Positions 4,370-64,000 of a stretch of DNA of 64,000 nt are shown in pieces (the stretch's first letter is position 1; every line of letters starts with the position of its first letter). The stretch is from an uncultured Bdellovibrionales bacterium (lineage in GTDB: Bacteria; Patescibacteriota; Minisyncoccia; Moranbacterales; UBA1568): positions 33,393-97,392 of the forward strand of contig CAYTED010000003.1 in the NCBI GenBank assembly GCA_964436855.1, read 5' to 3'. Both the position numbers and the translations under genes were made by a program. A model generated the notes under the pieces. The model ran no database searches. It saw only the letters and a program-made list of their open reading frames with translations, and had not been told where the DNA came from.

Positions 4370-4726
4370 TTACTCTCCGACAACACACGTTGTGTGTGTT
4401 CGTGCCGCCGGATAGGCATTCAGCCGATCAAAATCGATTTCTTTTCCGCACGACTCGCATTTTCCATATGTACCCGCCTCTACTCGAGAAAGCGCGTCGT
4501 TTACCTCACGCAATTCGTGTTCGAGTGTTACTTCAAGCGCCTTATTGTCTACATATTCTTCCACCTCGCTTGCGTTTTCATCGCGATCCGTCCCCATATC
4601 TTGATACTTCGTCTCATATTCCCCTTCTCCATCCACCGGCTTTGCAAATCGTGAAAGCTCGCCTTTTAAGCGTTCCGCTTCTCCAAGAAGTTTTTCTTTC
4701 AATTGAGCCGTTTTTGCCGCATCCAT
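4370..4726 (-). CDS. DksA/TraR family C4-type zinc-finger protein
   Basis: Coiled-coil N-terminus followed by CESCGKEIDFDRLNAYPAARTHTTC zinc-finger; start at MDAAKTAQL. Confidence 0.7.
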   Translation of the reverse strand: MDAAKTAQLKEKLLGEAERLKGELSRFAKPVDGEGEYETKYQDMGTDRDENASEVEEYVDNKALEVTLEHELREVNDALSRVEAGTYGKCESCGKEIDFDRLNAYPAARTHTTCVVGE

Positions 4727-4934
4727 ACGTTTAGAACCTGTCCGAAATCTCCATATTCTGCTGCAACACTGAAATGTTAGCTGCAAAAAGTTCAGATCTC
4801 GTCAGGTTATATTCTAATAGCCTTCCTCCATCTTCACTTTCTTCGCTCAACATTTCAGTGTTTCGCGACGAAAGAGAGATTTCGGACAGGCTCTTACATT
4901 AAACCGTTACAAGGAAAGTATAGCATAAAAATTT

Positions 4935-5330
4935 CTAAAGAAACACCCTCTCCAAATGCCGTATTTCCCGTATTTTTCCATTCATAGCATCTAAAAAAAT
5001 GGAAAGAACGTCAAAGTGATATGGGAAGGCCTCTCTTTTCTTCGCTCGAAGATACGAAACGGCAATTTTTTCCAACCGGTGAAGCTTTGTGCGCGTCACG
5101 CTCTCTTCCGGAAGCGGCGCATTTTCTTTCCATTCCCGCGTTTTTACCTCCACAAAGACAATTTCTCCTTTATATTCCGCGACAATATCAAGCTCTCCGA
5201 GTCGCCTTCCCTTCGTATTTGCGTAATTCCGATCGAGAATCCGATACCCTTTCTTCCGTAAAAAATCCGTCGCAACATCTTCGCCAAAATTCCCGGCACT
5301 CTTCGTTTGTTTTTTCCAAAATGAGAACAT
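4935..5330 (-). CDS. yraN: YraN family (UPF0102) endonuclease
   Basis: 131 aa; GEDVATDFLRKKGYRILDRNY...GELDIVA...EVKTR pattern typical of UPF0102. Confidence 0.8.
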   Translation of the reverse strand: MFSFWKKQTKSAGNFGEDVATDFLRKKGYRILDRNYANTKGRRLGELDIVAEYKGEIVFVEVKTREWKENAPLPEESVTRTKLHRLEKIAVSYLRAKKREAFPYHFDVLSIFLDAMNGKIREIRHLERVFL

Positions 5331-5366
5331 ACCCTATTCTACTTTGAGTTATGAAACTCTCAAAAG

Positions 5367-5461
5367 TGTCACTTCGACCGATCCGCCAGCTGGCGGAGAG
5401 TGGAGGAATCTCTTTTCTTTCAAATGAAATATAAGATCCCTCGACTTCGCTCGGGATGACA
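5367..5461 (+). repeat. MITE/REP-like hairpin element, TGTCAYYYCGACCGA ... TCGGGATGACA termini (copy a)
   Basis: ~95-nt element with terminal and nested inverted repeats; homologous copies at 12194-12278 (+) and 11144-11229 (-); short hairpin-only versions at 10316-10343 and 50791-50815. Confidence 0.7.
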
Positions 5462-6471
5462 GAAAGAGGAGTTTTGTAATTTAAGATTTTGCAGCCTCAC
5501 TTCGCAGCGGGCGAAAAAGCAACAAAAAAACGGCCCGTCTTGGCCATCTCACACCTATTTCTTCCATTTTTTTTCACTCCCCTTACCTTCCTTTCTCTAT
5601 TATTTATTACCTCCCGGCACCATTTTTGAGCATTGTTGGTGCCGGGCGCTACGTCTGCGCCCTAATAATAATTTATTTGGCTGAGTGTAGCGCCCGACTG
5701 ATGCGCCAACACGTACTTTGGATTCTGTCGCCCACGGGTGTGAAGGCAACGGGAATTCACAATGAGGCACGTGTGTTTTGTGCGCATCTCTGAATCGGTT
5801 CCGACGAAGCGATTCCTCCTTTACTACCGTCCTCTGGCGTATTGCCGTTTTGTTGAAAGAACTATTTTTTTTCTTTTTTTCTTTGTTTTTGTTCCTCCCG
5901 ATTTATCGTGAGAGGTCGGCAGCCGGACAAGAGAAGTTTCCAATTGATTTCGATTCGAAACTTTTTTTGTCCGACTCCCTTTTTTTGTTTTTGTTTTTGT
6001 CCCATCAGTCGGATTTTTTGATGGGGTAAGAAAGGTCAAAGTTTACCTTTCTTGTTCGGACAGTAGAAGGGTTCCTGCCGCAATAGGGGGATATTGCGAC
6101 TGGAACCCTTCTACCCTTTAGAGCACTTCCGCGTTTGGCACATTTCTTCGTTGCAACCTCCGGTGCTCGACACCGTATCTTGATCAGTACGGCTTACTCC
6201 GCTCCTCGGTTGCGTCTTGAGCTGTACTCAAACGCGAAAGTTCTCTCCTCTAGTTGTCAAAGTTCACCGTTACAGATCAATTATAGCAAAAAAATCACCT
6301 TCGGTCAATCGAAAAAATGCTTTTTTGTTTTTGTTTTTGTTGAGCCAAAATATTTTTTCTCAAAAAATTCTTTTTTAAGAAAATTTTTCGAATTTTTTCA
6401 GGAAAAAAATAGTCGTGGATTTTTTTGTGGCTTCATTCAGCCGTAAAAAGATATTCTCATCGAACACGTTC

Positions 6472-7788
6472 TCACAACGACGGGCCGAATGTGTCGATTA
6501 TCGATCGAAGAGTATTCTTGCTTGTTCCAATCGCCCATTTTTTCCCAAGCAAAGCGTAGTCGACAGAGAGACCTTCTCCACCGGTAATATTGAAGTATCG
6601 TATTTCAAATCCATTATGCGAACCGGAAGAAAACTTTCCCGTTGATATTTTTGCTTTCGGAGAATGATTGAGATATATCGCCTGCAGTGCGAACGGGATC
6701 TCGCTTTCACTTTTTTCGATCGCCTGTTTCAACAAATCTTTATTCTTAAACGACACCGTGAGACCGGCTCGAGCGACACCATCGTCAAGAAAAAGATACA
6801 AAGAAAACGACTCTTCGATTTGGTCGAGTACGGCTTGCGAGAGCGATATTTTCATTAGGGAGGCAAATCTTGCAAAGGCAACCGGATTATTGTTTTTATC
6901 GGTTACAAAGAATTCGACGGGTTGCGCTATGCCGCTTACTCGGAGCAATTCGCTTTTCTCCAAAAGAAGTCCCCGAAACGCTTCAGGCGTTATCGTTTCA
7001 ACATCAACGGAGAGATAGTTCGGAGAAGAAAGCGAGAAGGGAGTCGAAACATTCGGAGCCTCCGAACTCTGCTCTGATTGAGGAAGAGCTGTTTCGGTCG
7101 GAGTCATTTCCTGCGCTTGCATATTCGGCTCCTCGGTACTCTTTGAAGAGAAGAAAAAATAGGCAAACGCACCACCGGCAAGAAGCGCCACAAAAAGAAG
7201 GACAAGCCCCGCGATCAATAATCCTTTACCGCTTTTTTCCGCGGGTTTCTCCTGAAAAACCGGCTTTCCGGAAAACGGGAGTTCTTTTTTCGGGCGCATC
7301 CCACCGTTCCCGGGAAATGCATCGGGAGCGATTGGAAGCGTTGACGGAGGAATCGAAGAAATCGGTTTCGGCGGAAGAGTATCGAGCTTCAAGGGATTTT
7401 CAGTAGAGTCTTTTCTTGTTGGTTCCGACAGATTCTCTTCTTTTTCGAGTAAAAACGGACTTGACTCACGAGGATCCGGTCGCGCCCCGCTTCGATCAAC
7501 AGCGGTTACCACTACCGGGGACGTGAGGCCATTTCGTGTTGCTGGCGGAGTATTCCGCAAGGCGGGATTATCATTGAAAATTCCCGGCCGACTTACTGCG
7601 GCCTTCGCTTGTACATTTTGTTTCGGAGCTTTTTTCCCGGCAAGCACATCAAGGTCATCTTGCATCGTATTCACCGAGTCAAGAATTTCACTCGGGAGAT
7701 CCGATCCATTGGACGATTTGTTTCCAAAGATACCCATAAAAAAATTTGTTTTTTCAAAAAGAGAAAGGAGAGAAGTGCTAGAGCTCAT
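6472..7788 (-). CDS. Hypothetical single-pass membrane protein with disordered Pro/Ser-rich N-terminal region
   Basis: 438 aa ORF; one TM helix (LLIAGLVLLFVALLAGGAFAYFFF); no recognisable catalytic motif. Confidence 0.5.
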   Translation of the reverse strand: MSSSTSLLSLFEKTNFFMGIFGNKSSNGSDLPSEILDSVNTMQDDLDVLAGKKAPKQNVQAKAAVSRPGIFNDNPALRNTPPATRNGLTSPVVVTAVDRSGARPDPRESSPFLLEKEENLSEPTRKDSTENPLKLDTLPPKPISSIPPSTLPIAPDAFPGNGGMRPKKELPFSGKPVFQEKPAEKSGKGLLIAGLVLLFVALLAGGAFAYFFFSSKSTEEPNMQAQEMTPTETALPQSEQSSEAPNVSTPFSLSSPNYLSVDVETITPEAFRGLLLEKSELLRVSGIAQPVEFFVTDKNNNPVAFARFASLMKISLSQAVLDQIEESFSLYLFLDDGVARAGLTVSFKNKDLLKQAIEKSESEIPFALQAIYLNHSPKAKISTGKFSSGSHNGFEIRYFNITGGEGLSVDYALLGKKWAIGTSKNTLRSIIDTFGPSL

Positions 7789-7820
7789 CTCAAAAATAGT
7801 TTCGAAACGCTTTTCGTAGA

Positions 7821-7942
7821 TTTTCGTGCGAAAAATGCACGGATTGAGAAGGGCTATCGGGCGATAACCCGACGAGATACGAGCATTTTGCAGCCGAAAA
7901 GAACGGAAAGCAAGTCGAAAATTATTTTTGAGATGAGCTCTG
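7821..7942 (+). repeat. ~125-nt non-coding repeat, copy 1 (GATTGAGRAGGGCTATYCGG..GATAACCCGA..TTTTGCAGCC..)
   Basis: ~75% identical to 21724-21847; the ORF present in copy 2 is not conserved here (stop in frame), so probably RNA or DNA element. Confidence 0.6.
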
Positions 7943-7982
7943 CTCCTTTCATTATATACGGCAATTCTTTTTCACGGAAGAT

Positions 7983-10109
7983 CTACTCGGTCGCAATTCC
8001 CGATTCGGCTTCCATCCTTCGCTTTGCCTGCTTGTGTGAAAGATTGATCCGTCCCTGCGCATCGATTTCTTTCACTACAACCGGAACGATATCGCCAATC
8101 TTCACCACATCTTCCACTTTTTCCACGCGATAATCGGCAAGTTCGGAAATATGAATGAGTCCTTCTTGGTTCGGCAACACTTCCGCAAAGGCACCGAAAT
8201 TCATAAGACGCGTAATACGACCCTGGAACAATTCGCCCGCTTTCACTTCACGAGTGATGTTTTTGATCCAATCTGTCGCTTCTTTCGCGCTCGTTTCATC
8301 GGTCGAGGTAATGAAAACCGATCCATCATCCTCGATATCGATCGACACGCCGGTTTCATCGATAATCCGGTTAATCATCTTCCCGCCGGGGCCGATCACA
8401 TCGCGGATTTTCTCCGGGTTGATATGAAGAGTGATGATACGCGGCGCATACGGAGACATTTCTTTGCGCGATTCTGGCAAAGTTTCAAGCATTTTTCCGA
8501 GAATTTCGAGACGGGCTCGCTTTGCTTGCGCGATCGCCACCGCAAGCATCGACGGTGTGAGTCCATCGATCTTCACATCCATCTGCATCGCAGTAATACC
8601 ATCCGTCGTTCCCGCAACCTTGAAATCCATATCGCCATAATGATCTTCCAGTCCTTGAATGTCGGTCAGTACCTTGTATTCCCCTTCTTTTCCAGTAATC
8701 ACTCCCATCGCAATACCCGATACCGGCTTCTTGATCGGAACACCCGCATCCATAAGCGCGAGCGTTGAACCACACGTTGACGCCATCGACGATGAACCAT
8801 TTGAGGAGAGCACTTCGGAGACAAGTAGAATAGTGTACGGAAATTCTTCTTTCGGCGGAAGCATCGGGAGGAGCGCCTTTTCCGCGAGGGCGCCGTGCCC
8901 AACTTCTCGCCGTCCCGGACCACGCATCGGCTTCACCTCACCCACCGAATACGGCGGAAAATTGTAGAAGTGCATATATCGCTTCTTCATATCGACTTCC
9001 ATCGTATCAACCACCATTTCATCGCCGGGCGCGCCGAGTGTCGCAACCGTGAGCACCTGCGTCTCACCGCGCGTAAAGAGCCCGGTGCCGTGCGTTCGCG
9101 GGAGAACTCCCACACGAGACCAGATCGGTCGGATTTCTTCGAGACCACGCCCATCCGGACGAGCGTCTTTCTTCAAGATATTCTCGTGTACAATCTCATC
9201 GGACACCTCTTCATACACAATGCCCGTTATTTCCTTCGCGTATTTTTCATCCGGAAAGTTTTCCTTCACGTATTCGGCAAGTTTTTCCTCAATTTCGGAA
9301 ACCTTCTCCTGCATCGCCTGTTTCGGGCGAAGATAAAGCGCTTCATTCAAACCAGAATTCTTCAAGAATTCCCGCACACCCGCTTCAAACGCCTCCGATC
9401 CCAAGAGCATCGCCGCTTCGCGCTTTTCTTTGCCGATTTCCGTGCGGATATCTTCGATAAAGGTCGCGATTTTCTGAATCGCCTCAAAACCAAATTCAAA
9501 CGCCTTTGCCATCGTTTCTTCGGGAATTTCGTTCGCACCCGCCTCAATCATATTGATTTTTTCCTTCGTTCCCGAAAGAAGCAGGTCGAGCTTCCCGACT
9601 TCGCGCTCATCCGTCGCCGGATTCAAGACAAAATCGCCATTCGTCATTCCGACACGCACCGCACCAATCGGCCCGTTCCACGGAATATCCGAGAGGGCAA
9701 GCGCCGCCGAAGCCGCATTCATCGCAACCGTATCCGGATCGTTTTCACCATCAAAACAGAGGGTTGTAACCACCACCTGCACATCGGTCCGCATCCGTGA
9801 ATTGAAAAGTGGTCGGATCGTCCGATCCACCGCGCGCCCCGAAAGAATCGCGTCATCCGACGGGCGACCTTCACGTTTGATAAAACGCGACCCTTTAATT
9901 TTCCCCGCCGCGTAATACCGTTCTTCGTAATCCACCATCAAAGGAAAGTAGCCCATAATATTGGACGCACCCTTTCCCATCGTTGCTGCCGCAAGGACAA
10001 CCGTATCGCCGTACTGCGCTGTTACCGAACCGTTCGCCTGTCCGGCGAGCAAACCGGCCGTAATTTTAAGCTCGCGGCCGCCGAGCTGCAGACTCCATGA
10101 TTTTTCCAT
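7983..10109 (-). CDS. pnp: Polyribonucleotide nucleotidyltransferase (PNPase)
   Basis: Two RNase PH domains, KH and C-terminal S1 domain; start at [11 protein letters not shown]. Confidence 0.95.
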
Positions 10110-10373
10110 AGGAAAACCACGGCACGGAAAGAAGCTAAGAAACACGGCCTTACGCCAAAACCTTTGACGCACCGCTGTGCCTTCTAGCCATCTTCGTGCC
10201 ACATTTTTACTTGTTAACCACTTTTACCGTACGGGAAATCCGGTGCTTTGTCAAAAAAAAATTGAACTGTGGGTGCAAAAAATCATTCTTGTTTTGAATG
10301 CGCCATTTCATTCTCTGTCATCCCCGCGGAGGCGGGGATGACAAATAGAGGAAAAGTGAGTTCTTGCTCTCAC

Positions 10374-10408
10374 AAAAAACGCCCGGGATCCCGGGCGTTT
10401 TCTTTTTG
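10374..10408. terminator. Rho-independent terminator (bidirectional hairpin GCCCGGGATCCCGGGC flanked by A/T tracts)
   Basis: Perfect 16-nt GC palindrome followed by TTTTCTTTTT on the + strand and preceded by AAAAAA. Confidence 0.7.
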
Positions 10409-10420
10409 TATATAAATATT

Positions 10421-10918
10421 CTAAATGAGGAACTTCCGTTTGTCTTCGGAAATATTTGTAAAATCATCTGCTCCTTCGATGAGTTTTGCCGAAGCGGATT
10501 CGCCGAACGCGATCACCTCCACCCGGCAACCCGTGATTCCTTGGAGATACTCAACGAGCGGGAGATAGTCTCCGTCGCCGGATACAAGTACGATCACATC
10601 GAGTTTCGGCGCCATTTTGATCGCATCAACCGCAATACCGACATCCCAATCCCCTTTTTTCGATCCATCCGGAAAAATCTGGAGATCTTTCGTCTTCACG
10701 TCGTATCCGCTCTTCTCAAGCGCTTCGAAAAATTTTTCTTCCGTTTGTTCAACTGTCTTCACGCCGTATGCGATCGCGCGAATAAGTTTCCGCCCCGATA
10801 CCGCCGCGTCGAGCACGGCTTTAAAATTCACTTTTTTGCTATAAATGATCCGCGCGCTGTAGTACATATTCTGAATGTCTACGAGCACCCCGACCCGTTG
10901 TTCTGCAAACTTTGCCAT
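10421..10918 (-). CDS. NYN domain (LabA-like, PIN-related) protein
   Basis: 165 aa; VGVLVDIQNMYY...DWDVGIAVDAIKMA...VIVLVSGDGDYLPLVEYL typical of NYN/LabA. Confidence 0.75.
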   Translation of the reverse strand: MAKFAEQRVGVLVDIQNMYYSARIIYSKKVNFKAVLDAAVSGRKLIRAIAYGVKTVEQTEEKFFEALEKSGYDVKTKDLQIFPDGSKKGDWDVGIAVDAIKMAPKLDVIVLVSGDGDYLPLVEYLQGITGCRVEVIAFGESASAKLIEGADDFTNISEDKRKFLI

Positions 10919-11143
10919 AATCGTCTATGAGCGAAGCGAATAGCTACGATTATGAGCATCCGCCACGATTCCCTTATAAAAATTATTTCTTATACCAAAC
11001 GAGCCGTCAGGCGGTCCACTCATTCGTTCCCAAATATCAAAACGATACTTCGCAGGGAATCGGGCGGACAGCCATAATTTTTTTCATATTATTTCTTTTT
11101 TCAGTCTACCACCTCCCCCACAAAATACGAAAACACCCACTCA

Positions 11144-11229
11144 TGTCATCCCGAGCAAAGTCGGGGGATCTCCCTATCAAGAAAGAGATTCCTCGACTCT
11201 CCGCCAGCCGGCGGATCATTCGGAATGAC
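11144..11229 (-). repeat. MITE/REP-like hairpin element (copy c, inverted orientation)
   Basis: The reverse complement is ~80% identical to copy a, including GATCCGCCRGCTGGCGGAGAGT.GAGGAATCTCTTT. Confidence 0.7.
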
Positions 11230-11331
11230 AAGCGGGGGTTGGCTCACAGAACAATACAGAGAGAAGGCTCAAGAATGGTAAACAAAATACCAAGATACGA
11301 AAACCACTCCTCGATGGAGCGGTTTGGAAGA

Positions 11332-11595
11332 TTACAATCCGAGTTTTTCGACGAGCTTCTTCGCGGCATCCGCATTGGTTCGCTCGAGATACGCAAGCAA
11401 TTTCTTTCGCTTCGCCACCATCTTGAGAAGTCCCCGACGCGAATGAAAATCTTTCTTGTTTTTCTTCAAATGAGCCGTCAATCGCTTGATCTGCTCCGTA
11501 AAGAGGGCGATCTGATATTCCGGAGAACCGGTATCTTTCTCGTGCCGCTTCACTTCCTTTGTTACCCGCCCCTTCTGCTTGTTTGAAAGCGCCAT
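11332..11595 (-). CDS. rpsO: 30S ribosomal protein S15
   Basis: 87 aa; canonical S15 sequence and conserved position upstream of pnp. Confidence 0.95.
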
Positions 11596-11785
11596 ACACT
11601 TTGTCGAGCTCTACCCTCGTGCCGATACTCGTACACCAAGGTAGGCTACCAAAAAAAATTATTACAGATTGAGAATGACACAACTTTTTCCTTTTGGCAA
11701 ATTTCGGAAAATTTTTCATTGACTGACCCCTAAAAATATGATTTATAGGAGACAGCCCGATTTTGGGTATTTTTGGAGCTTAAAA

Positions 11786-12100
11786 ATGATTTTCGAGATC
11801 GAAGCGCATCACCGTCCGTGGCGAAGAACCTTTACGCCAAGAAACTCCCTCCGTGAATGCGTGCTCAATGAATTCACGCTTCAGGGAGTTGCCTCGTTCG
11901 ATGTCCTTAGGCAGATCTTCCGAGGCGGCGGCGTCCCCATCGAGTTCGGCGACGATGCGGTTATTCTTTCACCGAACATTCCGATCACGGTGAATAAGAT
12001 GGCTGTTATGCAGGGAGATAAGCGGGTCATCCCGACAAACACTGGCATTCTCACGCTCGGAATCGATATGCTCACATTCAGTGTCATCGCCACATCCTGA
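11786..12100 (+). CDS. Hypothetical small protein
   Basis: ~104 aa ORF followed by a strong intrinsic terminator; no recognisable domain. Confidence 0.35.
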   Translation: MIFEIEAHHRPWRRTFTPRNSLRECVLNEFTLQGVASFDVLRQIFRGGGVPIEFGDDAVILSPNIPITVNKMAVMQGDKRVIPTNTGILTLGIDMLTFSVIATS

Positions 12101-12120
12101 AGGAAGTCGCGAGTCAACCA

Positions 12121-12153
12121 AAAACCCTCCGTTTCACCGGAGGGTTCGTTTTT
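12121..12153 (+). terminator. Rho-independent terminator
   Basis: CCCTCCGTTTCACCGGAGGG hairpin followed by TTCGTTTTTT. Confidence 0.7.
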
Positions 12154-12193
12154 TATCTATTTTGAATTACGAAACTCCCAGAGATGTCATTCC

Positions 12194-12278
12194 AACCGAG
12201 TCTGCGGGTGGAGGAATCTCTCCTCTTTCAGAGAAAATGCACGATCCCTCGACTCCGCTCGGGATGACAGAAATATGG
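12194..12278 (+). repeat. MITE/REP-like hairpin element (copy b)
   Basis: TGTCATTCCAACCGAG...GGAGGAATCTC...GATCCCTCGACTCCGCTCGGGATGACA; homologous to 5367-5461. Confidence 0.7.
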
Positions 12279-12334
12279 GTTTTATCACGAAGCTCTCTCC
12301 GCATTTACCAATTCAGAAATGCAGCGTATATACC

Positions 12335-14785
12335 TTACAAGATGGTAAACGCGCTCACCTGATCGCCTGCTTGCGGGCGCATCACGCGCACACCCTGCGT
12401 TACGCGAGAGAGAAGCGGGACCGATTTGAACGGCACGCGGATAATCGTTCCTTTTTCCGATGTGAGAATAAGATCGTCTTCGATATTTCCCATACTCGTG
12501 ATCATCGCGCCGACGAGTTTTCCGGTTTTCGGCGTAACTTTCATCGTCTTGATTCCCGAACCGCCACGTTTCTGCACCTTGTAACTCTTGAGGTCGCTCC
12601 GTTTCCCGAGTCCGTTCTGCGAGAGAATGAGAAGCTCCATTCCTTTCAGGTCGTCCTTTTTTACGACATCCGCACTCACCACTTCGTCGCCATTGTCGAG
12701 CTTGATCCCGCGCACACCCGCCGCGCCGCGACCCATCGGCCGCACATCGGTTTCTTTGAATCGGATCGCTTGACCGTCTTTTGTTACCATGACAAGTTCG
12801 TCCGATCCGGTCGTAATCCGTACCCATCCGAGAAGGTCGCCCTTGTCGAGTGTGATCGCGATGAGCCCGCTCCGGCGCACATTTGCAAATTCTTCGATTT
12901 TTGACTTCTTTACCGTACCGTTCTTTGTCGCCATAAAGAGAAACTTTCCTTCGCCTTTCCGTACCGCAACCATTTCGGTGATTTTTTCTTCCGACGAAAT
13001 CTGGAGAAAGTTCACCACGGCTTGACCCTTTGCCGTACGCGACGATTCCGGAATTTCGTACGCCTTCGTCTGAAATACTTTTCCGGTATTCGTAAAAAAC
13101 ATCAGGTCGTCGTGCGTCTCAAGCGTGATTACCTGCGCGATCTTGTCTTCTTCCTTCGCAACTGCACCAATTACACCCTTTCCGCCACGCTTCTGCACGC
13201 GATACACGGTCGGGTTCATCCGCTTGATATAGCCATCCTCGGTAAGCGTAATAATCGCTTCTTCATTCGGAATGAGATCTTCTTGTCGAAACTCGCCGAT
13301 CCCGCCCTTCACGACCTTTGTCTTTCGTTCATCGCCGTACTTGTCGCGCAATTCGATAAGCTCGCTTTTCACGAGTCCGAGAATTTTCTTCCGGTGCTTC
13401 AGAAGATCTTCGAGATAGGCGATCAGTTTGTACTTTTCTTCGAGTTCGTCTTCGATTTTCTTCCGTTCGAGTCCGGCGAGTGTCTGAAGGCGCATTTCGA
13501 GAATCGCCGTCGCCTGACGCTCGGAGAGCTTGAACTTCTTCATTAAGTTCATATGCGCCTCTTCTTTGGTCGGCGATTTCTTGATCGTATTGATGATTTC
13601 GTCGATATGATCGAGCGCTTTTTTCAAACCTTCAAGAATATGCGCGCGATCTTTCGCCTTCGCAAGGTCGTGTTCGGTGCGACGAATCACGACTTTCTCG
13701 CGGTGTGCGATATAGTGCTCCAAGATCGACTTTAGGTTGAGAATCTGCGGGTCGATACCATCGACGAGCGCGAGCATGTTTACGTTAAAATTTTTCTGAA
13801 GATCGGTAAGTGAATAGAGCTGATTCAAAATCTTTTCCGGATAAGCCTCTTTCTTAAGATCAACCACGATCCGCACACCGTCTTTGTCGGATTCATCACG
13901 GAGATCCTTGATTCCGACAATACGTCCGTCTTTCACGAGGTTCGCGATATTCTCGATCAGGGTTGCTTTGTTCGTCGCGTAGGTGATTTCCGTAATGACA
14001 ATTTGATACGCTCCGGCTTTCGCCTCGACAATTTCCGCGCGACCACGCGTCGTGATTTTCCCGCGACCGGTCGCATACGCTTCGCGAATATCGCGCTCGT
14101 TGTAAATAATCCCGCCCGTCGGGAAGTCCGGACCTTTGACGAATTGCATCAAGTCTTCGATCCCTGCATCCGGATTGTCGATCAGGTGCACGATTCCGTC
14201 CGAGAGTTCATTTAAATTGTGCGGCGGAATATTAGTCGCCATACCGACCGCGATACCAACCGTCCCATTGAGGAGTAGTTGCGGAAGTTTTGCCGGAAGC
14301 ACGGTCGGTTCCTCGTGCATCCCATCGAAGTTCGGGATGAAGTCCACCGTGTCTTTCTCGATATCAATCAACAATTCCTCCGCGATTGCGGCGAGTTTCG
14401 CTTCGGTATATCGGTATGCCGCCGCGCCATCGCCGTCAAGCGAGCCGAAGTTTCCCTGCCCGTGAACGAGCGGATAGCGAAGCGAAAAATCCTGCGCCAT
14501 ACGAACCATAGTCTCGTACACCGCCGAGTCGCCGTGCGGATGATATTTTCCAAGCACCTCACCGACAACCGTCGCCGATTTTCGGAATTTTGCGCTTGAT
14601 CGAAGTCCGGTTGACCACATCGAGTACAAAATGCGACGATGCACCGGTTTCAAACCATCGCGAACATCGGGAAGCGCGCGCGATACAATAACCGACATCG
14701 CATAATCAAGATACGACTGCTTCACTTCATCGGTGATATTCCGACCCTCAACCTTTCCTTCAAATAATGTTTCTGTCTTTGCCAT
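12335..14785 (-). CDS. gyrA: DNA gyrase subunit A
   Basis: 816 aa; [23 protein letters not shown] active-site region and C-terminal beta-pinwheel repeats. Confidence 0.97.
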
Positions 14786-20803: not shown

Positions 20804-21685
20804 ATGGAAAATTTTTCTTCCCCGAAGATTCCCCCGACACGGGGAACTCCGGCGCCGGAATCATTTTCTCCCAACACCATTCTCCTCCGGGCTTTTCGAT
20901 TCACCATCCATCGAAAAGACGCTTGGGTATTCGGATTTTTTCTCTCTCTTCCTACAATCACCCTTCTCCTTCTTTCAAAATCCATTTCATTTGCCGAGAA
21001 AATCACAAGCGGAACATTCAGTAGCACCACGCTCTTCCTCTTTCTCTTTCTTTCGCTATTCTTCTTTCTCGTCGGCGAAAGCGGCCTTGTCCTCTGTTAT
21101 GACCCGTCAAAACACCCCGCATCGATTCTTTCCCGAATTGCCGCACTCGGCGCGCTCGGACGTTGGTATTTTTTCTTCTTCCTTATTCTCCTCTCGCTTT
21201 TCTCGATTCTTTTCCTTCCCTCGGTTGTTTTCCCCGGTCCGGAAGGAAGTCTCGATATTCTTCGCATACTCGGTATCGTTTTTTTTCTTCCTCTTCTCGC
21301 TCTTCTTTTCCTGATCAAAAATTTCGGTGTTTTCTATCTGCTTCTTTCGCACCTCAATCTCAAAGACTCTGCACTTCAAAGTTACGAACTTTTCCTCAAA
21401 GAAAAAAGTTTTTCTTTTCTTTCATTGCTGTTCATTCTGATTGTTACCGCGCTCTTTTTCCTATTCTCTCGAATTATGTTCGATATCATCCCCTCCCCGT
21501 TGTCTCTCGCTCCATTGCCACTCCTTGCGTGTTTTGGATATATCGCGCTCTCTTTCTTCGGAAGTATTTTCATACAGTCTCTCTGGTACTTTTCTTTCGA
21601 AAAAATAGCCGGCAATCACCCGCAGGATTGGCAAAAAGAAAAAGAAATGGTACAAAAGGAAATGGCTTCCGTGGGAGAGGTGTAA
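20804..21685 (+). CDS. Hypothetical polytopic membrane protein
   Basis: ~294 aa, at least six hydrophobic helices; starts 5 nt after the ftsH stop (MENFSSPKIP). Confidence 0.5.
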   Translation: MENFSSPKIPPTRGTPAPESFSPNTILLRAFRFTIHRKDAWVFGFFLSLPTITLLLLSKSISFAEKITSGTFSSTTLFLFLFLSLFFFLVGESGLVLCYDPSKHPASILSRIAALGALGRWYFFFFLILLSLFSILFLPSVVFPGPEGSLDILRILGIVFFLPLLALLFLIKNFGVFYLLLSHLNLKDSALQSYELFLKEKSFSFLSLLFILIVTALFFLFSRIMFDIIPSPLSLAPLPLLACFGYIALSFFGSIFIQSLWYFSFEKIAGNHPQDWQKEKEMVQKEMASVGEV

Positions 21686-21723
21686 GAGCCTGTTCTCAAA
21701 GTCTCTTTCGTCGCGAAATTCTA

Positions 21724-21847
21724 GTTTTTTGAGCGAAAAAAATGAAGATTGAGGAGGGCTATTCGGAGGATAACCCGATGAAATCTGAATCTTTTGCAGC
21801 CAAAAAACTGGAATTGCAGCAGAATACGGATTTTAAGAACAGGCTCT
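21724..21847 (+). repeat. ~125-nt non-coding repeat, copy 2 (immediately upstream of tRNA-Val)
   Basis: Homologous to 7821-7942. Confidence 0.6.
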
Positions 21848-21852
21848 AAAAA

Positions 21853-24389: not shown

Positions 24390-24990
24390 CAATTTGTTCC
24401 ACGTGGAACAAATTGATCTTGTAGTTTTCTTTCATAATGTTCCACGTGGAACAATCTTTTACAAAATCTTCATTGAACACAATTTATCCACATATAATTC
24501 ATTAAAAATTCGAATTTTGTTCCACGTGGAACAATTTACCTTGCCTTTATCAGATGTTCCACGTGGAACATCCACGAAAACAACGCGTTTCAGTATAAAT
24601 TTTCATATTTTAATCGTAATTTATGAATAAATTCAATAAAAGTATAACAAAAAAAAGTTCCACGTGGAACAAATTTTCAAATACTTATTTCAATAATGTT
24701 CCACGTGGAACATAAAATTGTACTTATACACTTATTATTCAGTATTATAGATAAAAAAATCATCCATGATTTCGTTTTAAGTACAGAATGTTCCACGTGG
24801 AACAATTTCATATATCTTTTTCACATACTTTTGTTCCACGTGGAACAAATTGGTGATGAAATTACATTTACACACTTGTTATACATTAAATACTAATAAT
24901 AGAGCTACTCAAAATTGTATTTTCTACAAAAATGTTCCACGTGGAACAATTTTTTGAATCTATACTGTCTCTTTGTTCCACGTGGAACAT
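24390..24990. promoter_or_regulatory. parS: Array of ten parS-like 16-bp perfect palindromes TGTTCCACGTGGAACA (centromere-like ParB-binding sites)
   Basis: GTTCCACGTGGAAC cores at 24396, 24439, 24519, 24556, 24657, 24698, 24790, 24833, 24934 and 24975. They form five pairs, 37-43 bp apart within a pair and ~123-144 bp between pairs. The sequence differs from Firmicute parS TGTTNCACGTGAAACA only by a symmetric G/C change. Confidence 0.75.
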
Positions 24991-29197: not shown

Positions 29198-29455
29198 TCA
29201 CTCGCTTTTAAAGTCACTTTCAAACATCTCTTTTAGTTTTCTCCTACCAGCACCACTTTTCCACCATAACTCACGTCTTTTTGCTTCTTGTACAGTTTTG
29301 AATTCTTCTGTGAATATGATTCTCAATGGTCGACGACTTTTTGTAGCCTTTACACGGCCGGACTCATGTTGCTTGAATCGTTCGGTGATATTTTGAGAAT
29401 AACCAACATAGGTCCTTTTATCTTTCAAACTTAAAAGGATATAGATGCCATACAT
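29198..29455 (-). CDS. GIY-YIG nuclease domain protein
   Basis: MYGIYILLSLKDKRTYVGYSQNITERFKQH = GIY-(10)-YVG motif with the conserved Arg and Glu; 85 aa. Confidence 0.75.
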   Translation of the reverse strand: MYGIYILLSLKDKRTYVGYSQNITERFKQHESGRVKATKSRRPLRIIFTEEFKTVQEAKRRELWWKSGAGRRKLKEMFESDFKSE

Positions 29456-29544
29456 ATTCTATTTGAGAGCGGGCCGCCTTTCATCCAGCCCGAAGGGCGG
29501 ATGGGCGAGCCTCGCTCAAAAATTTTGCTCAAGAAAAATTTTTG

Positions 29545-29616: not shown

Positions 29617-29735
29617 TTTCGCAAAGCCTTCGGCGGGCAAACCCGCTTTTGCTTTACAGTTTTGTACAAAACTCCCCCCTCAATCAATTCATTCTGTGGG
29701 ACCGGTTGGAATCGAACCAACGACCAATCGGTTAT

Positions 29736-30359
29736 GCTTCTCACTATTGCTTTCGCAACTTTTTTCAAATTTGTGAGCTGGACTATCCCTTCACCCAAAC
29801 AGGGTGTCTGCCGTCTAGTCTCTACACCTTCCCCAGCAAAACGCAGGGGCTTGGCTCGGGATTGTCATGCGACTTGCAAAAAGTTTGTCGTTTAGATTTC
29901 CCCGAATTTGGCAGAGTATCACTTGGAAATTACTTCCCAAGCAGCCCTTCGTATTCATTACATCTTGTGTTATTGTTTCGCTATGAAAAAAATCACAACT
30001 TGTACCGTGTGTGGCAAGACATTATCCGGAAGGCAACTTCGGTTTTGTTCGATGCAATGCAAGAACCAAGTTCACCAATCATACCAAGCGCAACAGGCTC
30101 GGGGACTCAAAAGAAAAATGCTTCTCTTAAAGCGATTTGGTGGAAAATGCTCCATCTGCAATTACGACAAAAACCTCGCCGCACTTACATTTCATCATAT
30201 CGACCCGAAGCAAAAGAGTTTCCAACTTGATATGCGATCTCTTTCGAATCGAAAACAATCCCAAATCGATACCGAGATACGAAAATGCATACTCGTTTGC
30301 AATAACTGTCATGCCGAACTCCACAACCCACAACACAATTTGAAATGAACTTTTTGAGC
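29736..30359 (-). mobile_element. Group I intron (Azoarcus-like IC3 core) in the tRNA(CAU) anticodon loop
   Basis: The intron RNA contains GGGGAAATCTAAACG, CCCGAGCCAAGC, and GAAGGTGTAGAGACTAGACGGCA followed by GGGATAGTCC (P7 GACTA/TAGTC). The 5' splice site follows U33 and the intron ends in G. Of the ~624 nt, ~366 nt are the antisense HNH ORF. Confidence 0.8.
29983..30348 (+). CDS. HNH homing-type endonuclease (encoded antisense within the group I intron)
   Basis: CxxC...CSICNYDKNLAALTFHHIDPKQKSF...LVCNNCHAELHN = zinc-finger plus HNH motif; ORF 29908-30348, probable start at M26 (29983). Confidence 0.75.
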   Translation: MKKITTCTVCGKTLSGRQLRFCSMQCKNQVHQSYQAQQARGLKRKMLLLKRFGGKCSICNYDKNLAALTFHHIDPKQKSFQLDMRSLSNRKQSQIDTEIRKCILVCNNCHAELHNPQHNLK

Positions 30360-30418
30360 CGACCGCTCTAACCCCTGAGCTACGGTCCCTTCTTGTCTCT
30401 CACCTTCCCTGAGCTCTG

Positions 30419-50765: not shown

Positions 50766-50868
50766 TACCATGTGATAAATTCATAAGAGTCTGTCATCCC
50801 CGCGAAGGCAGGGATCTAGAATCCACAAATAAACGATTTATTGTAGGGTTAAATTCATCCGGCATACT

Positions 50869-63001: not shown

Positions 63002-64000
63002 TATGGTCCAAGTTATCCGAAGCTCAAGCACGCCTGTCGGCGAAACAAAAGGGACCGAGCTTGAAGAAAAATTGAGCAAACTGAAAAGCTCTTCCATCGA
63101 AGAAAGCGCTTCTCGGCTGGCCGCAGAAGTCGGCCTCGCCTACGCCGACCTTCATCTCTTTCCGATTGTCGCCGAAGACATCCGCCTTATCCCCGAAGAA
63201 GACGCCCTGCGTCTCGGCATCGCGCTCTTTCAAAAAAATGGAAAGATTGTTCACTTCGCTCTGCTTGATCCGCGGAATACCGAGGCGAAACAATACATCA
63301 AATCTCTCACCGAAAAAAACGATTGGCAAACAACCCTCCACATCGTCTCAAAACCTTCATTCGACAAGGCAATCGCCGTCTATCACGATACGCCGATCCT
63401 GAAATCCCTCGATCTTATGAAGGTGTCCCTTTCCGGGTCCGACCTCGAAGACTTCGACAAAAATTTCGGCGCGCTCGCCAACCTCGAAAACGAAGCCGAG
63501 AAAATCTCCACCTCGCAGGTGCTCGAAATCATCCTTGCCGGCGCAAAAAAAATGCGCTCAAGCGACATTCACCTCGAGCCGGAAGAAGACGTCGTCCGTC
63601 TGCGCTATCGTATCGACGGCGTGCTTCACGACATCGGCAGATTTTCCAAGTCCGTTTCCCAGCTTGCTACGTCTCGCATTAAAATGCTCGGAAAAATGCG
63701 CCTGAATGTCCGCGATCGCGCGCAAGACGGGCATTTCTTTGTTGATCTCGAAGGAAAACGCGTCGATATCCGCGTCAATGCGATTCCGGGAAAATACGGC
63801 GAAAGTATCAATATGCGTCTCCTCTCGGGCGACGACATTATCGGAAAAATGGAAGATCTCGGGCTGCGCGGCCTCGCCTACGAACTCGTACAAAAAGAAA
63901 TTGCAAAGCCGCACGGAATGATTTTAAACACCGGTCCGACCGGGTCAGGGAAAACGACAACGCTCTATACTCTGCTGAACACGCTCAACGAACCCGGCAC
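63002..64000 (+). CDS. pilB: Type II secretion / type IV pilus assembly ATPase GspE/PilB (3' end beyond window)
   Basis: N-terminal GSPII domain, then the GspE ATPase region; Walker A GPTGSGKTTT at the window edge. Confidence 0.85.

Follow-up and report, generated by a model that had tools for sequence, protein, structure and literature searches.

What are the short hairpin repeats scattered over a 64,000-nt stretch of an uncultured bacterium (GenBank assembly GCA_964436855.1, contig CAYTED010000003.1, positions 33,393 to 97,392), hereafter the window, and how did they come to be there? A first-pass annotation, made from the letters alone, had described three long and two short copies of a family resembling miniature inverted-repeat transposable elements (MITEs) or repetitive extragenic palindromes (REPs). 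The host is a member of Candidatus Moranbacteria (Patescibacteria, Candidate Phyla Radiation or CPR), an assignment based on named relatives whose GyrA is 80-84% identical. Our analysis indicates that the window elements very probably belong to the superfamily of CGTC/TGTC-tagged REPs, which also takes in Neisseria dRS3/NTS and the Ssn-related motifs (SRM); as tagged REPs in a CPR bacterium they extend a known kind of element and are not a new one. The fuller account, in which this identity is joined to a role as hairpins in single-stranded DNA (ssDNA), is in our judgement probably the best explanation of the family as a whole.

Loci and anatomy of the elements

The elements and their shared flanks are located as follows:

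5367-5461, + strand: c1, head-head heterodimer (tags outside); left unit 5367-5411, spacer 5412-5433, right unit 5434-5461 (- strand)
12185-12269, + strand: c2, head-head heterodimer; left unit 12185-12219, right unit 12243-12269 (- strand)
11144-11230, - strand: c3, head-head heterodimer in opposite orientation; GAGC-type unit 11144-11170 (+), GAC..GTCGAGG unit 11187-11230 (-)
10316-10343, no strand: double-tagged palindrome, perfect 12-bp TGTCATCCCCGC-GGAG-GCGGGGATGACA
50792-50816, + strand: solo unit of a related subtype, TGTC-ATCCCCGC-GAAG-GCAGGGAT-CT
5337-5366, + strand: left flank common to c1 and c2 only, ..TTTGAGTTATGAAACTCTCAAAAG
5462-5483, + strand: right flank common to c1 and c2, partly to c3, GAAAGAGGAGTTTTGTAATT

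All five loci of the first-pass annotation are present in the window sequence, and all copies are intergenic, as it had said. Two of the long copies lie where they had been placed (5367-5461 and 11144-11230); the second copy, put at 12194-12278, actually occupies 12185-12269. The short copy at 10316-10343 keeps its coordinates, and the one assigned to 50791-50815 is a solo unit at 50792-50816. The identity of about 80% reported for the long copies holds and survives exact alignment, with a mean column identity of 76% over the three aligned copies and pairwise blocks of 78-88%.

Tagged hairpins of the form [TC]GTCAT-N3...N3'-ATC occur 8 times in the window, whereas 300 dinucleotide shuffles gave 1.3 on average and never more than 5. 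Moreover, the string TGTCATCCCGAG with up to two mismatches has 11 matches against 4.75 expected, a count reached in 0 of 100 shuffles. Since both shuffle controls are exceeded, the family is not a product of chance. A relaxed scan of the window for 7-bp stems gave no additional units, and an independent Logan assembly (SRR12229868) is 100% identical to the window over 9.9 kb (4783-14716), a segment which includes four of the five loci. This contig came from an exact look-up of RpsO and, being identical, added nothing on polymorphism; the same kind of look-up with the window GyrA gave no record.

Each long copy consists of two different hairpin units, ~27-45 nt each, paired in inverted orientation with their TGTC tags pointing outward. 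The terminal (TGTCAY...GGGATGACA) and nested (GGAGGAATC...GATCCCTC) inverted repeats described earlier are indeed there, and what had been taken for one hairpin with terminal inverted repeats resolves into two inverted hairpin units. On its own strand the right-hand unit reads TGTC-ATCCC-GAGCGAAGTCGA-GGGAT-CT (TGTCATCCCGAGCGAAGTCGAGGGATCT in c1, - strand). The left-hand unit reads TGTC-ATTCC-GACCGA[..]GAGTGGA-GGAAT-CT, represented in c1 by TGTCACTTC GACCGA [TCCGCCAGCTGGCGGA] GAGTGGA GGAATCT, with one stem mismatch. A small extra hairpin of 10 nt, CCGCCAGCTGGCGG, sits in the left-unit loop of c1 and c3 and there is none in c2; in c3 the inner hairpin within the GAC..GTCGAGG unit is CCGCCGGCTGGCGG. 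In the long elements all six units combine a 5-bp stem with a loop of 12-33 nt, and the spacers from unit to unit within the window dimers measure 16-24 nt.

The two short copies had been read as versions consisting of the terminal hairpin only, a reading that has to be given up. One is the solo unit at 50792-50816, which has an 8-bp stem with one mismatch and the 4-nt loop GAAG; the other is a palindrome (10316-10343) in which the tag and the AT-stem can be read on both strands around the loop GGAG, with a G where the C tail would be, so that it looks like a collapsed or double-tagged unit. Neither of the short copies is a truncated long one.

Some positions are nearly constant. The TGTC tag begins 8 of 8 window units (the first base being C or T at other loci), and stem ends of the form AT....AT are found in 7 of 8, the exception being the left unit of c1 with AC....AT; the AT-initiated stem also appears in all unit types recovered from other phyla. 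GTC directly 5' and C directly 3' of the palindrome accompany every window unit except the 10316 palindrome (7 of 8).

Similarity between copies extends beyond the hairpins. The spacers of c1, c2 and c3 are mutually related, and the similarity of c1 to c2 runs 20-25 nt past the tags on both sides. The left flank of c1 is partly complementary to its right flank, forming an outer repeat TTAYRAAACTC/GAGTTTYRTAA. Because the spacers and some of the flanks are related, the three dimers are copies of one master dimer; given the c1/c2 flank similarity, copying reached a little beyond the tagged dimer. The flank motif TTAYGAAACTCYC was considered as an independent repeat family and rejected, having 10 matches in comparison with 7.65 expected.

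The paired unit and its published relatives

To sample stem variation we scanned viral contigs with GTCATNNNGAGCGNAGTCGANNNATC, both stem triplets being left free, and obtained 50 matches. The triplets are fully complementary in 47 of these copies, which display 9 types of triplet pair; there is no G·T pair among the 150 pairs, and when partners are shuffled the number of complementary triplets averages 9.8 and never exceeds 19. Variation in the unit stem is compensatory change, and its restriction to Watson-Crick pairs agrees better with selection acting on DNA, or on both strands, than with selection of a single RNA strand. In heterodimers whose triplets differ (for instance ATGTT/AACAT beside ATCCC/GGGAT) pairing is kept at the level of the unit and not at that of the dimer; thus the unit, not the dimer, is the conserved structure.

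Folded as RNA at full length, c1 and c3 gave z values of -3.6 to -6.2 on either strand, compared with -1.3 and -2.3 for the c2 piece folded, 76 nt only; DNA folding of the three long elements gave z = -1.8 to -3.9. The single-stranded dimers fold as one long hairpin or as a three-way junction; with units paired in inverted orientation, single-stranded DNA could adopt either two small hairpins or one long one.

The REP-like half of the first-pass description is borne out by the literature, as the anatomy and head-head dimers match the CGTC/TGTC-tagged REP superfamily, for which families CGTC-1 to -4 were defined (Di Nocera, De Gregorio & Rocco 2013, BMC Genomics 14:522; PMC3733652). According to that study, these REPs carry an unpaired terminal CGTC, often TGTC and also CCTC, have stems which "almost invariably" start with complementary AT, end in short tails, and mostly form head-head (HH) dimers, in which the tags are outside; these are frequently heterodimers, and their spacers, 20-100 bp in length, have complementary ends. 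They have no dedicated transposase and come from five phyla, Neisseria dRS3 and Rickettsia RPE-4/6 being among them. The window elements share the tag, the AT-initiated stem, the short tail, the intergenic location and the lack of a dedicated transposase, and 3 of 3 long elements fit the pattern of HH heterodimers with such spacers. The stems and loops of families CGTC-1 to -4 measure 8-9 bp and 4-5 nt, families with other loops being mentioned too (PMC3733652); the 50792 unit and the 10316 palindrome have the CGTC-1 geometry (8-bp stem, 4-nt loop). In contrast, the units of the long elements have a perfect stem of 5 bp and large conserved loops, either GAGCGAAGTCGA or a GACCGA..GAGTGGA loop into which a hairpin is inserted; C(T/C) takes the place of the published tail CCA, and Patescibacteria/CPR are absent from the five phyla of that study.

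Rickettsia RPE-4/RPE-6 and Wolbachia CGTC-4 belong to the same superfamily (PMC3733652). Like the window elements, they inhabit small genomes of host-dependent bacteria. Their stem and loop sequences differ from those of the window units. In addition, RPEs are known to insert into coding genes, whereas the copies in the window are all intergenic.

A second body of work concerns NTS, an extended dRS3 with the sequence CGTCATTCCCGCGMAVGCGGGAATCYRG (Chenal et al. 2025, Nat Commun 16:2388; PMC11893778). Its partner SsnA, a 94-aa single-domain GIY-YIG protein (cd10448), binds NTS as ssDNA and cuts a few nt upstream; binding depends most on the C that directly follows the palindrome, and cutting on the three upstream nt. 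RNA and double-stranded DNA forms of NTS are not SsnA substrates, and the RNA is not bound. Motifs were found near 71% of ssn homologues, Ssn is encoded in 81% of the genomes with more than 200 motifs, and the NTS-ssn-NTS arrangement resembles an insertion sequence (PMC11893778). The window units have the same tag, AT-initiated stem and C after the palindrome. Furthermore, the published SRM search string does pick up TGTCATTCCCGCGAAGGCGGGAATCC at locus L043 of a Parcubacteria metagenome-assembled genome (MAG); CPR hosts go unmentioned in the main text of Chenal et al. (PMC11893778).

In other genomes the unit type is linked to Ssn-like genes. Three loci picked by the unit and not by the gene (L041, L052 and L012, the last frameshifted) each contain an Ssn-like GIY-YIG open reading frame (ORF) that has TGTCATCCCGAGCG.AGTCGAGGGATCT-type units within 100 nt of either end. 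Conversely, of three viral loci picked by the Ssn-like protein alone, the two closer ones have tagged AT-stem hairpins beside the gene. In the case of the window, no cognate Ssn gene, and no gene of the cd10448 type, was found in its 64 kb, and binding or cleavage of the window unit type by an Ssn is putative. With no cognate enzyme in these 64 kb, the units may be orphan, selfish or neutral passengers in this host.

These comparisons suggest a mechanism, whose basic module is a short DNA hairpin with an unpaired 5' (T/C)GTC tag, a stem starting with A-T/T-A and a C directly after the stem. Such units would act at the ssDNA level as recognition hairpins for a small single-domain nuclease of the GIY-YIG Ssn family. 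The tag and the C tail correspond exactly to what SsnA requires for cutting and binding, respectively, and the Watson-Crick-only covariation gives indirect support to recognition as ssDNA. Amplification would probably be brought about in trans by Ssn or another hairpin-specific enzyme, or else the units may have been imported. That the window units are Ssn targets is the likeliest of the modes of action considered, but a tentative proposal, to which we give somewhat less than an even chance.

Several points weigh against this account. The units of the long elements depart from the canonical dimensions (8-9 bp for the stem, 4-5 nt for the loop), and the 20-25 nt of flank that c1 and c2 share are not accounted for by cutting a few nt upstream of the tag. 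No window unit matches the SRM string HGTCWYN(0-2)YYVSBRHN(0-5)WNVSBRGN(0-2)RNCYNB, which does find the NTS control and the L043 unit; its sole match in the window (63174-63204) is unrelated. The folding energies of single units (DNA z of about 0 to -2) are not distinguishable from those of shuffles, so that the case for the unit hairpin rests on covariation. The mechanism by which CGTC REPs multiply has been demonstrated by nobody (PMC3733652, PMC11893778). Finally, the sole GIY-YIG ORF of the window, at 29201-29458 (-), has no units beside it or beside its 7 metagenome relatives. This ORF (85 aa, single domain, Pfam E = 3e-16) was considered as the cognate enzyme and rejected, being closest to the UPF0213 proteins BH0048 and EF2693 and having no flanking units; it is also without the Ssn-like C-terminal part ...REKQLK.W.R.KK..LI..NP.W.DL.

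The window unit subtype falls outside both the stem and loop sizes of the four CGTC families and the SRM search string. A more far-reaching possibility, which we regard as unlikely, is that TGTCATCCCGAGCGAAGTCGAGGGATC, together with the GAC..GTGGAGG partner, represents a separate and very large branch of the Ssn motifs, missed by the SRM pattern, moving horizontally and nearly invariant among at least ~15 phyla and viruses, and persisting in CPR genomes of ~1 Mb without a cognate Ssn. If that were true, amplification would be due to another enzyme in trans (e.g. the tRNA-linked UPF0213-type GIY-YIG or the YraN-type nuclease of the window) or to repeated import by DNA uptake.

The tagged REP identity joins on one sequence the CGTC-tagged REP (2013) and SRM (2025) literatures, which are without cross-citation in those texts. 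It also means that a subtype abundant among uncultured Acidobacteriota, Verrucomicrobiota, Planctomycetota, Bacteroidota, Clostridia and Patescibacteria escapes the SRM string, and it puts a concrete oligonucleotide and Ssn-like genes (L052, L041) at hand for the question of what Ssn recognizes. For CPR bacteria, which rely on DNA uptake and whose genomes hold few repeats, a hairpin repeat linked to the restriction of ssDNA would bear on how they police incoming DNA; this is speculation on our part.

Spread across genomes and the competing explanations

The 27-mer GATCCCYCGACTYYGCTCGGGATGACA is found exactly in 6 IMG/VR viral contigs and in at least 120 stretches of GTDB genomes, with at least ~15 phyla among the matches listed. 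The hosts among these matches include Acidobacteriota, Verrucomicrobiota (with Kiritimatiellia and Lentisphaerae), Planctomycetota, Bacteroidales, Clostridia, Negativicutes, Coriobacteriales, Chloroflexota, Gemmatimonadota, Armatimonadota, Nitrospirota, Nitrospinota, Desulfovibrionales, Bdellovibrionales and Alpha- and Gammaproteobacteria, besides eight Patescibacteria records. The GTDB stretches among the matches listed (L008-L127) are all MAG or uncultured records. Closed long-read MAG chromosomes such as OY970194.1 (7.5 Mb) carry the 27-mer too, and thus the MAG-only pattern is not a short-read artefact. A search of 7.3 Gb of PLSDB plasmids and 2.3 Gb of cultured phages found the 30-nt unit nowhere in full, and partial matches were at chance level.

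A tagged partner lies no more than 160 nt upstream in 65% of the 142 exact matches, and 50 are without one; 19 partners, from several phyla, are of the GAC..GTGGAGG type as in the window. As for the arrangement of dimers across loci, 92 have the tags outside (HH), 25 have them inside (tail-tail, TT) and 30 are in tandem. Dimer spacers have a median of 34 nt and ends that are often complementary; from copy to copy they are usually unrelated. Two kinds of micro-variation were also seen in these loci. The loop may hold a variable number of RAGCG pentamers (GAGCG-CAGCG-GAGCG-GAGTCGA), as in L003, L013, L014, L023, L027, L127 and others, and the tagged end may be partly duplicated in tandem (...GGGATGACA-N8-12-GGGATGACA...), as in L031, L041, L043, L069, L076 and L087; both look like slippage products. 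Some units have the core GCGAAGC, which is described as a DNA mini-hairpin of unusual stability.

Gene order is conserved in the closest relatives available (GyrA 84-85%), running gyrA ... rpsO-NYN ... pnp-hyp-yraN, and no units were found in their 22-kb syntenic regions. Their rpsO-NYN spacer, with a plain terminator, is ~110 nt in length, compared with 413 nt in the window (~300 nt longer). Since the syntenic spacers of the relatives are without units and this spacer is shorter in them, the elements were gained in the present lineage; at such divergence the comparison gives presence or absence and spacer length, the relatives being too distant for base-exact empty sites. A side observation concerns the same region: c3 and c2 are inverted heterodimer copies which bracket 11231-12184, with their GAC-type units facing the segment, which holds rpsO and a 120-aa ORF without Pfam match. 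The bracketed segment could be an inversion substrate; rpsO is in the same place in the relatives and no rearrangement was seen there.

Among the alternatives the one that survives best, itself improbable, places the primary function at the RNA level, with the elements as 3'-untranslated-region or leader hairpins, mRNA-stability determinants, terminators or RNase III/E sites for rpsO, pnp, gyrA and dnaN. The good folding of c1 and c3 as RNA on both strands agrees with this proposal, as do three positions. Namely, c2 lies between the gyrA stop (12335, - strand) and the bidirectional terminator 12123-12146, the solo unit 26 nt past the dnaN stop, ahead of a DciA-like gene, and the 10316-10343 palindrome between the NYN terminator and pnp, ~200 nt upstream of the latter. 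The leader of E. coli pnp contains a hairpin for RNase III. E. coli REPs, moreover, stabilise upstream mRNA (PMC3733652). As for the remaining copies, c3 is in the rpsO-to-NYN spacer downstream of a terminator-like rpsO hairpin, and c1 is 37 nt upstream of a YraN/UPF0102 gene. However, c2 and c3 are not oriented alike with respect to the gene beside them, relatives that have these genes do without the elements (their rpsO has an ordinary terminator), and the same unit stands beside unrelated genes in the ~15 phyla and in viral contigs. No Rfam match was detected at the elements, either at the gathering threshold over the whole window or with E up to 5 over 4700-12400, the 150 stem pairs include none of the G·U type, and NTS in RNA form is not bound by SsnA (PMC11893778). 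The role as mRNA-stabilising or RNase-target hairpins that the first-pass annotation had suggested gains no positive support. Side effects of the elements on transcripts are possible.

A strict REPIN, that is a doublet of GTAG-type REPs mobilised by a REP-associated tyrosine transposase (RAYT, an IS200-like Y1 HUH enzyme), is very unlikely. The window elements do have REPIN architecture, an inverted doublet of imperfect palindromes with the potential for a long hairpin. In both cases such a doublet is the replicating unit, target-site duplication is lacking and recognition presumably involves a single-strand hairpin with a 5' tetranucleotide (PMC3733652, PMC6006769, and Bertels & Rainey 2011, Nunvar 2010 and Ton-Hoang 2012 as named therein); action on ssDNA would also account for the Watson-Crick-only covariation. 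Against this, the tag is (C/T)GTC, TGTC in every window unit, and not GTAG or GTGG, and RAYT genes were flanked by GTAG REPs or long terminal inverted repeats (TIRs) and never by CGTC REPs in a published survey (PMC3733652). The RAYT or IS200-like partner that the first-pass annotation had suggested looking for did not appear: a Pfam scan of 20 window ORFs (85-270 aa) returned housekeeping families in all cases and no Y1 transposase (PF01797), none recurs beside units elsewhere, and neither a HUH Y1 enzyme nor a RAYT gene flanked by its own REPs was seen for the window elements.

Slightly less probable still is a classical MITE, the deletion derivative of a DDE-type insertion sequence with double-stranded TIRs bound by a transposase in trans and with target-site duplications. 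The inverted repeats that form the ends start with TG...CA, the length is 85-95 nt, and the elements are intergenic and absent in relatives, all of which would suit a MITE. Nevertheless, a direct repeat of 4 nt or more was present at the ends of 0 of 80 non-redundant dimers, with end matches of 2-3 nt at permutation level and no visible target motif. The supposed TIR is an autonomous hairpin with compensatory changes that also occurs alone (the 50 partnerless matches above), and in most genomes the spacers between ends are unrelated across copies. No transposase family recurs in the neighbourhood either. Pfam matched no family more than twice among 134 adjacent ORFs, the matches being ordinary housekeeping genes, an all-against-all BLASTP of 4065 ORFs from 127 loci gave no conserved neighbour (the largest cluster is present in 6 of 127 loci), and neither a transposase nor a parent insertion sequence with the same ends was found beside ~160 loci, from collections not searched exhaustively. 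The label MITE, in the transposon sense, finds no support.

Chance similarity, low complexity or an assembly artefact, which the exclusively MAG or uncultured origin of the GTDB stretches among the matches listed and the lack of plasmid and cultured-phage matches might suggest, has a negligible probability in view of the shuffle controls, the compensatory stem variants, the identical Logan assembly, the closed long-read chromosomes and the documentation of the superfamily in isolates.

Recognizing the units as tagged REPs avoids spurious ORF calls and assembly-break problems. Two spurious ORFs read through elements in the window, one of 219 aa at 10927-11586 (+) via c3 and the other of 93 aa at 12081-12362 (+) via c2; their peptides include the strings ..MSSRAKSGDLP.. 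and ..HDPSTPLGMTE.., and it is likely that repeat-derived ORFs of this kind pollute protein databases. A full-text literature search with sequence strings gave chance matches in unrelated papers only, and one with peptide strings from spurious ORFs gave nothing useful. Because several unit matches sit at contig ends, the units probably break metagenome assemblies.

Further features of the window

The GIY-YIG ORF at 29201-29458 is located directly 3' of tRNA-Gly. Three of its 7 UPF0213-like relatives (L170, L171 and L173) likewise follow a tRNA closely on its 3' side and are preceded by a conserved palindrome, AAATTT..AAATTTGAGCGAGGCTCGC. These UPF0213-like GIY-YIG genes may constitute a tRNA-linked cassette in CPR genomes, unassociated with the TGTC units.

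A second tRNA feature is found nearby at 29700-30378 (-), where a tRNA is apparently split by a group I intron (RF00028 match at 29756-29998, 56.6 bits). ARAGORN made no call of this split tRNA. Its 5' half is at ~30378-30343 and its 3' half (..ACCGATTGGTCGTTGGTTCGATTCCAACCGGTCCCA) at ~29745-29700; if spliced as read here, the anticodon loop would be CUCAUAA (CAU).

An AT-rich stretch of 600 nt (24395-24989), just upstream of tRNA-Ala (25087), contains ten copies of the 16-bp palindrome TGTTCCACGTGGAACA, nine of them exact and one with one mismatch, in pairs ~40 nt apart; zero copies are expected by chance. This array could be a binding array for a regulator or an initiator, a putative role. 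Since rnpA, a 480-aa ORF and dnaN are at 47-50 kb, the array is not beside dnaN.

Next to c1, the ~1 kb from 5462 to 6471 is without a convincing ORF and without Rfam match. On the - strand it has a strong promoter-like site at 6308-6280 (TTGACC-17-TATAAT with TG) and a terminator at 5550-5527, which together suggest an unannotated transcript of ~750 nt.

Finally, a second and unrelated repeat of ~170 nt is present at 4730-4898 and, inverted, at 21681-21850, the two copies being 84% identical. It has terminal inverted repeats of 11-13 bp (TTAGAGCCTGTTC...GAACAGGCTCTTA) and an internal inverted repeat, and looks more like a true MITE than the TGTC elements do.

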